Of a stretch of DNA of 56,444 nt, positions 53,285 through 56,444 are shown in pieces; within the stretch, counting starts at the first letter, position 1; each line of letters begins with the position of its first letter. This DNA is from an uncultured delta proteobacterium (GTDB lineage: Bacteria; Desulfobacterota; Binatia; UBA9968). Below the pieces are notes generated by a model. That model made no database searches. It had not been told where the DNA came from and saw only the letters and a list, made by a program, of their open reading frames with translations. The position numbers were made by a program, and so were the translations under genes. The stretch is from assembly GCA_963840855.1 (NCBI GenBank), contig CAWJBB010000006.1, positions 1 to 56,444 on the forward strand. The letters run 5' to 3'.

Positions 53285-53999
53285 TCAACGATTGAGGTCC
53301 AATCGAAACTTCGACGCTGCTTTAAATTTTTCCGAATCTGAAATCTCCCCGGGTTTTCCACCAAGAATTCCAGGTTCATCTAGCGTCCAAGGGCGGTCAT
53401 CGATTTGTGGGTCAGTAGCCAATCCCGCGGAAAATGGTTGTTCGGAATCCCCCATTTCGGCTTCCGAATCCTCGCGCAATGCGGCGAGTATATTTTTTCT
53501 CAGCTCGATTGCCAAATAATCGCGCGCAGCATGGATTTGAACGAATGGCAGAGAGATCGACCTGCAGATGTCTGTCGAGAAAGTGTCCCGTTCTTGGCGC
53601 TGGCGCGATTCATCCGTTTCATCATTCAGCTCGATAACGCAGCGAATCAAGAGGTTCTTTTTGTCGCATAGGACAAAGTCAAAATATTTCGCCCTGATTT
53701 GATTGAACGCATATAGCCAAGCGCTTTGATTTGCCGTGGACCTCACGCTTACGATGTCCGCGACTCGAACTTTGCCAAAAACTCGATAATCCTCACCGAC
53801 GGCTTGCTCGAGCGCGCCAAGGAGTGAGCGCTCGGCCGGCGAGAACAGCGTGCGGTTTCTGGTGTACGGTAATTCCTCGAGTCGCACAACCGTCGTCCGC
53901 CTCATCATTTTTACCGCGATAATAAAAAAAGGAATAAGCCAACGCCACCAGCAAATACGGCAAAACCGTTTGTATTCCTGAAAGCAACGGCAACATCAT
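53285..53999 (-). CDS. DUF2726-domain membrane-anchored protein, apparent frameshift near 53910
   Basis: LFSPAERS..YRVFGKVRVADIV..FDFVLCD..IELND; N-terminal TM segment in ORF 53793..54002; shift at a homopolymer run. Confidence 0.75.
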
Positions 54000-54026: not shown

Positions 54027-54334
54027 TGCAGGTTATTTATCTTCAGCGGTGCGGGCTGCCAATGAAGCGCTAAATTTCCGCATGATTTCTCAGTTTGCCG
54101 TTAAATTAACCTAAACACTTCCTACCCGTGCTCGAACATTGTCACTATTTTGACAGGTGGCGACGAAATTTTTGCGAGACTCTGTCGGGTTTTTGACAGC
54201 CTTGTTTGCCGAGTCGCCTTTTAGATTAACGGTCTTGGTGACGCCGAGTTGAAAGTGGTATGTTCGGAGCGCGCGTTTTTGCTCCACGTTGGGCAAACTC
54301 AGCATCGTCAAACACAGCGTTCAAAAAACCCGTC

Positions 54335-55966
54335 ATGGAAATTTTCAGCTCCCAATTCTTCGTGCTGACCCTGGCGCTGGTGGGCGTCGTTATCATCATC
54401 GCCGCGCTGCTTTCCGGACTCATCGACCGGAGCGACTTGCCCCAGGTCGGAGTCTTCTTAGCGCTCGGCGCGATGCTCGGCCCGGCGGGTCTGGCATTGC
54501 TCGATGTTACTCTGGAGTCACCGACCCTTCGCGTCGTGGCTACTTTGAGTCTGGTTCTGGTGCTGTTCACGGACGCCGTCAGTCTCAGCATTGCGGAAAT
54601 GCGCCGCCACGGCGCGCTGGCTTTCCGAGTTCTGGGACCCGGAACGCTTCTCTCGGCGGGACTGATCGCTCTCGCGGGATGGCTGCTTCTTGGACTCCCT
54701 GTTGCGGCCGCGGCTATTCTCGGCGCGGCGCTCGCCTCAACGGATCCGGTGATGCTGCGCGGTTTGCTTAGGCGCCCGGGTCTTCCCGAGCCCGTGCGTC
54801 TGGCGCTGCGACTGGAAAGCGGCCTCAACGACGCCGTCCTATTGCCCGTCGTCCTGGTGGCGATGTCGTTTCTGGGCCAGAGCGGGCTCCCGAGTCAAAC
54901 CGATTGGGCGCGCATCGGTCTCGATCTTTTTCTTTTAGGACCGGGCGCGGGCATCGCCGTGGGGCTGCTCGCCATTGCCGCGCTGGAAATGATCAGGCGC
55001 AAGACCGGCGTGCGCCGGGACTACGAATCGATCTATTCTTTGGGTGTGGCCTTCGCGGCTTATGCCGCGGCCGAGGCGGTTCATGGGAGCGGATTTCTCG
55101 CCGCCTTTGCCGCCGGTTTGACCATCGCGGCGCTGGACGTCGAGCTTTGCGATTGTTTTCTCGAATACGGCCAGACCACCGCTGAGATGACGCTCCTGTT
55201 TACTTTCGTGCTCTTCGGCAGTTCGCTGATCTGGAGCGGATTCACCGTGCTGAGCTGGCCGATCTTTTTCTTCGCCGTAGCCGTCGTGGCGATCCGACCC
55301 ATCGCCTTTTTCGTCTCCCTGGCCGGGACCCGGCTGGATTGGCGCAGTCGCCTCTTGATCGCCTGGTTTGGACCTCGCGGTTTGAGCTCGCTCCTCTTGA
55401 TCCTGCTCCCGGTCTTCGCCGCCGTTCCCGGCACTCAGCTTTTGTTTTCTATCTGTTGCTTTATCGTCTTACTTTCCGTTGTGCTCCACGGTGGCTCGTT
55501 AATGTTCATCAGACGCGACAAATCCACTGTAGCATCGCCGGCGACGGCTGAGAGCAGCGCCGCTGGCAGCGTCCCAACAGAGTTGTCGGCAACTTCAAAC
55601 TCCCGCGAAAGTGAAAATAAACCGGGAGAGCTCATCACCATCGCCGAGATGCGGCAATTGCAGCGATCGGGCGCACCAAACCTGGTTCTCGACGTGCGAG
55701 CGGAACATAGTTTTGCGGACAGCGGTCTTCGAGCTGAGGGAGCGCTCAGGATTCCTCCTGATCGTGCCGTTGCGCGTCTCACCGAACTTGACGTCCCGCA
55801 CCAGACTTGGCTCTTCGCATTTTGCGCTTGACCGGACGAAGCGACCAGCGCCCGTGTGGCGCGGGAATTACAAAAGGCGGGTTGGACTAAAGCGCGAGCG
55901 CTGGTGGGTGGCTGGCAAGCCTGGCGGGCAGCCGGATTACCGGTTGAATCGCAACCGCTCCTCTGA
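54335..55966 (+). CDS. CPA1 (NhaP-like) cation/H+ antiporter fused to a selenocysteine-containing rhodanese domain
   Basis: ASTDPV, ESGLND, WFGPRG; rhodanese LDVR...FCA-TGA(55829-55831)-PDEATSARVARELQKAG..LVGGWQAWRAAGLPVE continues 44 codons to TGA 55964-55966. Confidence 0.85.
55845..55864 (+). promoter_or_regulatory. Putative bacterial SECIS hairpin
   Basis: CC(A)GCGCC-CGTGT-GGCGC-GG; apical loop with G at position 2 begins about 21 nt after the UGA. Confidence 0.6.
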
Positions 55967-56012: not shown

Positions 56013-56444
56013 TCAGCGCTGAGCCACGGCGCCCAGAGTCTCGGCCGTACGTATGAGGCGGATGAACTCGGCGCGGTATCCTTCAGGGTCAGGGCCGCGC
56101 GCGGCGTTGGCAAGTTCGGCAATACGCGCGTAGGCGTAGCCGTCGAGGGCGTTCTCGCCGCGCAGGCGCTGGCCGAAGGCGGCGACGGCGATCGCGAAGC
56201 GTTGCTCGGCTGGCGCGGCGTCAAACTTGGCGAACGCGTCCGCAGCCGCGCACCGGCTGCTCGATGAGCCGGCTCGTTGTTTCGCCCGGCAATTTGTAGC
56301 GTAGTTTGACGAACGCCATCTCATCGCGGCCGATTGTCGACGGTGTAGATCGATCACGCTCAGTCTGGTAGCGGAGCGGATCGATCTGACGCTGCTTCGC
56401 GCCGGCGGGCGTAATCTCATAAATCGCCGTCACAGTGTGGCCGG
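56013..56444 (-). CDS. 3' end of a YfbK-like VWA-domain protein (DUF3520-like C-terminus), partial, frameshift near 56250
   Basis: HTVTAIYEITP..DPLRYQ..FVKLRYKLPG; FAIAVAAFGQRLRG..DPEGYRAEFIRLI. Confidence 0.8.

Follow-up and report, generated by a model that had tools for sequence, protein, structure and literature searches.

The locus examined here raises a single question: does a TGA codon inside a transporter gene end the protein, or is it translated as selenocysteine (Sec, U)? The gene occupies positions 54335-55966 of the forward strand of a 56,444-nucleotide stretch of DNA (hereafter the window) from an uncultured delta proteobacterium of the Binatia (GenBank assembly GCA_963840855.1, contig CAWJBB010000006.1). 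An earlier note, made from the sequence alone, had described it as a probable selenoprotein in which a cation/H+ antiporter is fused to a rhodanese domain. The follow-up analysis agrees with this description. The gene product is probably (at roughly 0.82) a single 543-residue selenoprotein composed of a CPA1 antiporter, a linker, and a C-x-U rhodanese-like domain, and the sequence comparisons make it very likely that the fusion is real and Sec-decoded. The selenoprotein is most likely genuine and appears to represent a new architecture, a CPA1 antiporter fusion, within a known kind of Sec-rhodanese.

An ATG at 54335 opens an open reading frame of 54335-55831, which is closed by the TGA at 55829-55831 in the context F-A-F-C-A-stop-P-D-E-A-T-S-A-R. 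As the earlier note stated, this TGA lies inside the rhodanese active-site loop, and reading through it completes the domain with its LxGGxxAWxxAGLPVE signature. When the codon is read as U, 44 residues (500-543) are added, among them the stretch A-L-V-G-G-W-Q-A-W-R-A-A-G-L-P-V-E. The last codon ends at 55963 and is followed by a second TGA (55964-55966), so that the whole gene has 543 codons plus a terminal stop, with the in-frame UGA as codon 499. The start at 54335 matches the N-termini of the closest orthologues in the alignment, and an upstream in-frame ATG at 54260 has no backing from these N-termini.

The protein is divided into three parts, all encoded on the forward strand. Residues 1-395 (54335-55519) form a CPA1 (NhaP-type) antiporter domain with 13 predicted helices or half-helices, in which residues 22-391 match PF00999 Na_H_Exchanger at 141.2 bits (cut-off 26.2). 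Residues 396-430 (55520-55624) are a flexible linker, with a predicted local distance difference test score (pLDDT) below 50, whose length and sequence vary among orthologues. Residues 431-543 (55625-55963) are the rhodanese-like domain that spans the UGA; it is matched by PF00581 Rhodanese over residues 437-532 (26.2 bits, cut-off 22.2), across the TGA, and by the NCBIfam model NF041203. An AlphaFold2 model built from a 26-row alignment (mean pLDDT 75.4) shows the same order, from 13 membrane helices or half-helices through a disordered linker (395-430) to an alpha/beta domain with pLDDT values of 79-91.

Conservation of the frame beyond the UGA

Orthologues were collected from one genome per species. 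A relative is encoded in 443 stretches, and the best 80, all spanning both the antiporter and the rhodanese domain, were kept for a codon count. Locus L022, which has the opposite orientation, and loci L024-L029, which encode unfused CPA1 proteins, were left out of this count. So were L021, which is the window itself, and L023, a relative that enters the count as L049. Two loci truncated at contig ends, L046 and L073, did not enter the sets used for the hairpin, entropy, and tree analyses.

The codon aligned with U499 is TGA in 72 of these best 80 of the 443 relatives, TGT in five, and TGC in three. All 80 loci stay in frame past codon 499 through about 40 conserved residues. Downstream of the UGA, T504, G516, G526, W527, W530, and P536 are identical in all 26 rows of the alignment, and the third-position entropy at conserved downstream codons is 1.5-1.9 bits, which means that synonymous sites are freely variable. 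Invariant residues combined with free synonymous sites indicate a translated frame under purifying selection rather than a post-stop remnant. The earlier note had proposed aligning homologues for alternation between TGA and TGY with downstream conservation, and the result, 72 TGA against eight TGY with a conserved downstream frame, shows this alternation. Its alternative of a TGC or TGT misread through sequencing error disagrees with the presence of the same TGA in 72 other genomes. The note had also described the Cys homologues as C-x-C-P-x-E-x-S; the actual pattern is C-x-C-P-x-[E/D]-x-T-[S/A], in which the Ser falls one place later.

According to record titles, the orthologues come from Binatia, Armatimonadota, Gemmatimonadota, Gemmataceae, Nitrospirota, and others. 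The Acidobacteriota carriers are Pyrinomonadaceae, Bryobacteraceae, and the isolate KBS 96 (L082), and the Chloroflexota carriers include Thermosporothrix hazakensis ATCC BAA-1881 (L079). By the same titles, the fusion is retained in at least eight phyla with the catalytic motifs of the antiporter intact. The carriers comprise abundant soil lineages and at least two cultured strains (L079 and L082), which makes the protein testable. Among 79 orthologues placed on a tree, the eight Cys-containing sequences make up three clusters nested among the Sec forms, indicating at least three changes, whose direction the unrooted tree does not prove. The predominance of Sec forms in this family, with TGA in 72 of the 80 sampled species-level genomes, is unusual. 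Four close orthologues (L031, L047, L042, and L094) from metagenome-assembled genomes titled Udaeobacter, Verrucomicrobiia, Eisenbacteria, or Gracilibacteria cluster tightly with Binatia or Chloroflexota sequences, a placement that points to contig mis-binning or to recent transfer.

When residues 400-544 were searched against a protein database, 110 matches were obtained, 102 of which carry PF00999. These 102 proteins cover at most 68% of the 145-residue query, and most of them are 493-498 residues long; none, NCBI and JGI entries included, reads past the UGA. Public annotation thus lists the fusion as a truncated antiporter. Because the database matches end at the UGA, the domain content, the selenoproteome counts, and the selenium dependence of the carriers are under-called.

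The hairpin and the selenocysteine machinery

A predicted bacterial selenocysteine insertion sequence (SECIS) hairpin follows the UGA at 55845-55865 of the forward strand. Its core (55848-55862) is a 5-bp stem with a 5-nt loop, located at +20 to +34 from the U of the UGA within the S-A-R-V-A codons, and two further pairs lie beyond a 1x1 mismatch. The stem in the window is GCGCC/GGCGC, and the loop is C-G-U-G-U, a case of the C-G-N-G-Y loop common to all Sec forms. RNAalifold applied to 71 distinct Sec sequences predicts exactly this 5-bp helix, with 355 of 355 cells paired and none broken. Compensatory double changes affect three of the five core pairs, each in at least one sequence, and single wobble changes number 11. 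In a slid-register control, in which the 3' partners were shifted by 1-3 columns, pairing was 27-43%. Of 63 distinct rows, 59 retain an additional pair, C17-G37. A longer stem (columns 9-13 with 40-44) was not counted: it is 70.8% paired, and at three of its five positions 22-45 of the 63 rows are unpaired. Codons +6 to +10 show almost no synonymous variation, with third-position entropies of 0.19, 0, 0.69, 0, and 0.11 bits, whereas the same amino acids elsewhere use all codons. In the Cys forms, only 23 of 40 core cells pair, and at least one pair is broken in seven of the eight. The SECIS-like hairpin that the earlier note had placed after the UGA is thus conserved and covarying in 71 sequences.

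The bacterial SECIS model described in the legend of Fig. 2 of the 2026 review PMC13188914 has a loop of 3-9 nt, a stem of 4-16 bp, a G in the first two loop positions, a UGA-to-loop distance of 16-37 nt, and a minimum free energy of at most -7.5 kcal/mol. The window hairpin agrees with these values, with a 5-nt loop, 5 bp, a G at loop position 2, 21-nt spacing, and minimum free energies of -7.6 kcal/mol (15 nt) and -10.8 kcal/mol (21 nt). The comparative data support the view that the hairpin acts as a bacterial SECIS for Sec decoding of the UGA at 55829-55831.

Most of the selenocysteine machinery is present in the genome of the window, an assembly of 7.1 Mb in 93 contigs that is 94% complete and 8% contaminated. 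Adjacent selD, selB, and selA genes form a cluster on the reverse strand of another contig (C1:37592-41868, loci L009-L014), with a break in selB at L014:2872. SelA was recognized at 530.1 bits and SelD at 382.6 bits, the latter with one in-frame TGA of its own (G-U-A-A-K). The earlier note had called for selA, selB, selC, and selD to be confirmed; selA, selD, and selB (in two frames) were located on this contig, and selC was not found. A genome devoid of Sec machinery combined with homologues devoid of TGA, which the note named as evidence against its proposal, is not what was observed, as the machinery is largely present and 72 of 80 loci have TGA. The two genomes of the same family with the TGA orthologue each contain a clear tRNA-Sec, scoring 78.5 and 75.3 bits. 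Of the genomes tested, 12 of 12 with the TGA form contain SelA, versus two of eight with the Cys form, although some of these are incomplete metagenome-assembled genomes and related genomes are not independent.

The rhodanese module and the antiporter

The best domain-specific NCBIfam match of the rhodanese part is NF041203, 'rhodanese_LYCAU, rhodanese-related (seleno)protein' (76.8 bits, E 1e-21), and the best solved relative by sequence is 6mxv_A (2.4e-10). U499 (55829-55831), which alternates with Cys among orthologues, aligns with the catalytic Cys of the C-G-G-G-F-R-S loop of 6mxv_A. Cys497 of the C-x-U motif (55823-55825) is an extra residue ahead of this loop; its codon is TGC or TGT in all 71 distinct Sec forms, and it is invariant in the 26-row alignment. 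The loop itself is acidic, U-P-[D/N]-E-A-T-S, and its Glu is invariant in the 71 Sec forms. A weak resemblance to ChrE chromate-resistance rhodaneses was also detected, at 15.9 bits (E 0.0097) for the antiporter fusion and 38.7 bits for a DedA fusion described below. This type of domain appears as 'rhodanese form 3, CxU, NF041203' in the available portions of the reviews PMC13188914 (2026) and PMC9312934 (2022), and a table of the former attributes the prediction of the 'form 3' rhodanese selenoprotein to Zhang and Gladyshev 2005. The statement of the earlier note that rhodanese-like selenoproteins were already known agrees with these sources.

Proteins above the NF041203 cut-off were found in 48 of 301 sampled genomes of the phylum of the window, mostly as proteins of about 140 residues with one TGA, and none was found in the genome of the window or in 101 genomes of its class. 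The antiporter fusion shares with this family the domain, the C-A-U motif, and the following P-N/D-E-A-T-S-A-R-V-A. The active-site motif is F-C-A-U here, compared with [L/F]-Y-C-[A/S/T]-U in NF041203 members and Y-U-A-U in five cytochrome fusions. A homologous hairpin of 5 bp and 5 nt occurs in the family at the same offset of +20 to +34, in which GUGCC/GGCAC replaces the GCGCC/GGCGC of the window through a compensated pair. The members differ in that most stand alone at about 130-170 residues, whereas the domain here is the C-terminus of a 543-residue membrane transporter. On these similarities, the fused domain is best described as a diverged relative of the NF041203 family, in which domain and predicted SECIS move as one module.

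The genome of the window has two more rhodanese genes that contain a TGA. One is a DedA/VTT-rhodanese fusion on the forward strand of another contig (C52:10802-11929, equal to L110:727-1854), with PF09335 at 61.2 bits and its TGA at C52:11777; the TGA is part of C-S-U-P-N-E-A-T-S-A-R-V-A and is followed by an identical GCGCC/GGCGC hairpin. The other is a small rhodanese open reading frame of 163 codons on the forward strand of a third contig (C55:1596-2084), with a TGA at 1941. Compared with the C-x-U type, this gene has its TGA shifted two residues towards the N-terminus (Y-U-A-C-P) and followed by a different hairpin, and the N-terminus of its product has a hydrophobic stretch, by eye a possible signal peptide. 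The C-x-U module is also fused to S1C proteases and multihaem cytochromes. Six loci of the same phylum (L137-L142, from genomes G284, G214, G458, G251, G316, and G423) join an NF041203 rhodanese, scoring 155.6 bits in L139, to a multihaem cytochrome with eight CxxCH motifs (PF13447). They start with a hydrophobic stretch that was read by eye as a signal peptide, which would make the cytochromes periplasmic. Five of these six loci have Y-U-A-U, that is, two selenocysteines two residues apart. A portable C-x-U rhodanese with an embedded SECIS, joined to DedA proteins, proteases, multihaem cytochromes, and an antiporter, offers a handle on the function of the 'form 3' selenoprotein.

In the membrane part, the best Foldseek matches are PaNhaP (4cz8) and MjNhaP1 (4czb), with TM-scores by target of 0.69-0.75 (0.71 for PaNhaP and 0.75 for MjNhaP1), and the next fold matches after these archaeal NhaPs are SLC9C1, SOS1, NHE1/3, and KefC. 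A T-D pair in an unwound helix, an N-D pair (electroneutral CPA1 type), and a conserved Arg constitute the ion-binding signature of such exchangers. The corresponding S-T-D137-P, L-N165-D166, and G-P-R348-G are conserved in the orthologues and in unfused relatives. Since these signature residues are conserved, the antiporter looks functional and of the electroneutral N-D type, and it is probably catalytically competent. The best NCBIfam antiporter matches are K+/H+ models, all far under their cut-offs; the K+/H+ equivalog NF003716 reaches 154.2 bits against 355, and the Na+/H+ equivalog TIGR00831 a_cpa1 reaches 57.5 against 279.6.

The E-L-C-D-C-F-L-E motif that the earlier note had noticed in the membrane part is real. 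It comprises residues 270-277 and is conserved in the orthologues, with C272, D273, C274, and F275 at least 98% conserved in 79 orthologue rows. All 26 alignment rows have C272-D273-C274 (55148-55156, forward strand), which lies where the tenth helix is predicted to begin on the cytoplasmic side. A C-x-C at 272-274 occurs in 43 of 47 rhodanese-bearing representatives versus six of 25 proteins that end after the membrane domain. In the model, the junction before C272 would face the cytoplasm, on the same side as the C-terminal domain, because the helices alternate and Arg/Lys-rich loops follow helices 3, 5, 7, 11, and 13.

No neighbouring gene is generally conserved beside the antiporter gene; the best family, Peptidase_S58, occurs in 12 of 81 loci and reflects lineage synteny. 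The upstream neighbour in the window encodes a DUF2726 protein (53285-53908, reverse strand, 123 bits), and its association with the antiporter gene is not conserved in other genomes.

Competing readings, proposed role, and known systems

Several observations weigh against the reading of the gene as a Sec-decoded, functionally coupled fusion. The score of 76.8 bits for NF041203 is below the curated cut-off of 115, and it is 73.3 bits in the six-frame genome search. The acidic loop makes classical rhodanese chemistry doubtful; the active-site loops of thiosulfate sulfurtransferases are basic. Relatedness confounds the link between C-D-C and the fusion, and C-x-C occurs in some CPA1 proteins that are not fused. 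Compared with shuffled sequences, the window hairpin is unexceptional, with z scores of -1.19 (101 nt), -0.05 (48 nt), -1.58 (21 nt), and -2.05 (15 nt); a single-sequence fold is uninformative in this GC-rich DNA, so the structural case for the hairpin is comparative only. The selB gene is split over two frames in the assembly, with pieces of 207.6 and 193 bits (about 400 in total). Finally, tRNA-Sec was not found in the 94%-complete assembly by Rfam, ARAGORN, or blastn. The best RF01852 match (43 bits, cut-off 47) is a tRNA-Ser, ARAGORN reported 39 tRNAs and none for SeC, and blastn with the tRNA-Sec of relatives gave matches of at most 19 nt. ARAGORN at an 80% threshold gave 6388 "tRNAs", which is noise, and the 19 kb surrounding the sel operon yielded just two chance miRNA-like matches when scanned with Rfam.

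The split selB and the failure of three methods to find tRNA-Sec would be explained if the Sec trait had just been lost in this genome, so that only a 498-residue antiporter with a broken rhodanese stub is made. The selB break is a 1-base insertion just upstream of the Y-F-R-L-P-V-D-R motif, and it was compared with contigs of four runs from four studies. In three of these other soil-metagenome runs, a near-identical contig, with 1-4 letters different across the 181-384 nt compared, is missing precisely this base, and the fourth run does not cover the site. The gene at the end of the window is frame-split as well: the YfbK_C gene (PF12034, vWA-type; 56013-56442, reverse strand) lies over two overlapping frames that match profile positions 52-115 and 91-184, probably through a further indel in the assembly. 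Because three runs lack the extra base and YfbK_C is likewise split, the selB break is likelier an assembly indel error or a strain variant. Only 39 tRNAs were assembled, which indicates that tRNA genes are under-recovered. Moreover, in four genes of the genome the reading frame continues uninterrupted past a TGA, and the hairpin is intact in the antiporter and DedA genes. The missing selC and the selB indel are most simply attributed to assembly quality, and recent loss is improbable. Even less credit is due to the explanation of the TGA as an ordinary stop or a sequencing error with a decaying remnant downstream. Gene callers do terminate the protein at this codon, as the truncated database entries show. 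However, the comparative data already contradict this explanation: TGA recurs in 72 of 80 loci across many phyla, downstream residues are invariant while synonymous sites are free, the frame has no additional stop before the common C-terminus, the hairpin shows covariation, and SelA accompanies the TGA form. The chance that it is correct is very small.

If the gene is Sec-decoded, the ribosome would read the UGA at 55829-55831 as Sec by means of a hairpin in the coding sequence that recruits SelB and Sec-tRNA(Sec). Read-through would yield the full-length antiporter-rhodanese, with the rhodanese domain in the cytoplasm, tethered by a disordered linker of about 35 residues. There it may serve as a sensory or regulatory module of the antiporter, in which the Sec/Cys pair changes state (selenenylsulfide, persulfide/perselenide, or adduct) and thereby modulates exchange; the signal might be passed by exchange with the cytoplasm-facing C272-D-C274. 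A regulatory rather than catalytic rhodanese domain is favoured, although its probability stays somewhat under one half, because CPA exchangers are commonly gated by C-terminal cytoplasmic domains, a fully equipped transporter is kept in the fusion across many phyla, the cytoplasm-facing C-D-C motif accompanies the fusion, and no partner gene is conserved nearby. The redox- or sulfur/selenium-gated transport suggested in the earlier note is plausible, since the cytoplasm-facing C-D-C is conserved together with the fusion. The most specific form of this idea is that the C-x-U rhodanese senses oxidants, reactive sulfur or selenium species, or electrophiles and that selenol/thiol exchange with C272-D-C274 switches K+(Na+)/H+ exchange. 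This form is speculative and more doubtful than not. If true, it would provide a Sec-dependent counterpart of the control of KefC by glutathione, widespread in Acidobacteriota, Chloroflexota, Binatia, and other soil phyla, and a Sec switch on a secondary ion transporter that is invisible in current annotation.

The regulatory role competes with two other functions. The rhodanese could be a membrane-held enzyme, such as a sulfur/selenium transferase or a chalcogen or metalloid reductase, for which the antiporter supplies an anchor or a local H+/cation flux. The position of U exactly at the catalytic site in the 6mxv_A alignment, the occurrence of the same module and hairpin with unrelated partners (DedA/VTT, S1C proteases, periplasmic multihaem cytochromes), and the weak ChrE likeness, which is stronger in the DedA fusion, all fit an enzyme; the stand-alone form of about 140 residues in 48 of 301 phylum genomes also has a distribution that suits a self-contained catalytic unit. 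Against this, the retention of the fusion in at least eight phyla with intact antiporter motifs and the accompanying C-D-C suggests functional coupling, the acidic loop is unlike that of thiosulfate-type enzymes, and no partner enzyme is conserved beside the gene. A tethered enzyme is not the expected outcome, but it is a serious minority candidate. Alternatively, the C-x-U motif and the invariant Glu three residues after U, perhaps with C-D-C, could bind a soft metal ion, forming a metal sensor or site tied to exchange. The invariance of C-x-U, C-D-C, and the acidic loop would suit such a site, yet no metal-resistance gene is conserved beside the antiporter gene and no metal-binding family was matched in the Pfam and NCBIfam searches; metal binding is distinctly unlikely. 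Regulation of the antiporter by the tethered Sec-rhodanese is the preferred reading of its role.

A CPA1 antiporter-rhodanese fusion was not found in the literature, including under rhodanese with NhaP, although supplementary survey tables may list it. The words antiporter and exchanger are absent from the available portions of PMC13188914 and PMC9312934, in line with the earlier note, which knew of no described Sec-rhodanese fused to a CPA1 transporter. NCBIfam release 20.0 has no full-length model for the protein, and the TsoB model NF045694 is not among the NCBIfam matches of the window protein. The transporter-linked selenoproteins named in the available portions of PMC13188914 are MerT, E1-E2 ATPase, YeeE/YedE, Sao proteins, and SO_0444, with no antiporter among them, and a CPA-family antiporter would join this short list.

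Among known transporters, PaNhaP (4cz8) and MjNhaP1 (4czb) share the helix count and the T-D, N-D, and Arg motifs with the window protein at 18-22% identity, but they are without a C-terminal rhodanese, Sec, or C-D-C. The layout of an exchanger with a cytoplasmic C-terminal module is shared with KefC with glutathione (8by2), with SLC9C1 and SOS1, which have cyclic-nucleotide-type domains, and with NHE1/3 with CHP1. KefC is a K+/H+ exchange system controlled by thiols and electrophiles. The regulatory domains of these exchangers differ from rhodanese and none of them uses Sec, and regulation of the window protein is proposed by analogy. The closest parallels to the fusion itself are other Sec-rhodanese proteins. 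The available portions of PMC13188914 list TsoB (NF045694), a rhodanese/DsbD fusion-like selenoprotein with a U-x-x-x-x-U motif. In TsoB and in the DedA and cytochrome fusions, as in the window protein, a Sec-rhodanese module is joined to a membrane or electron-transfer partner, and it is the partner that differs.

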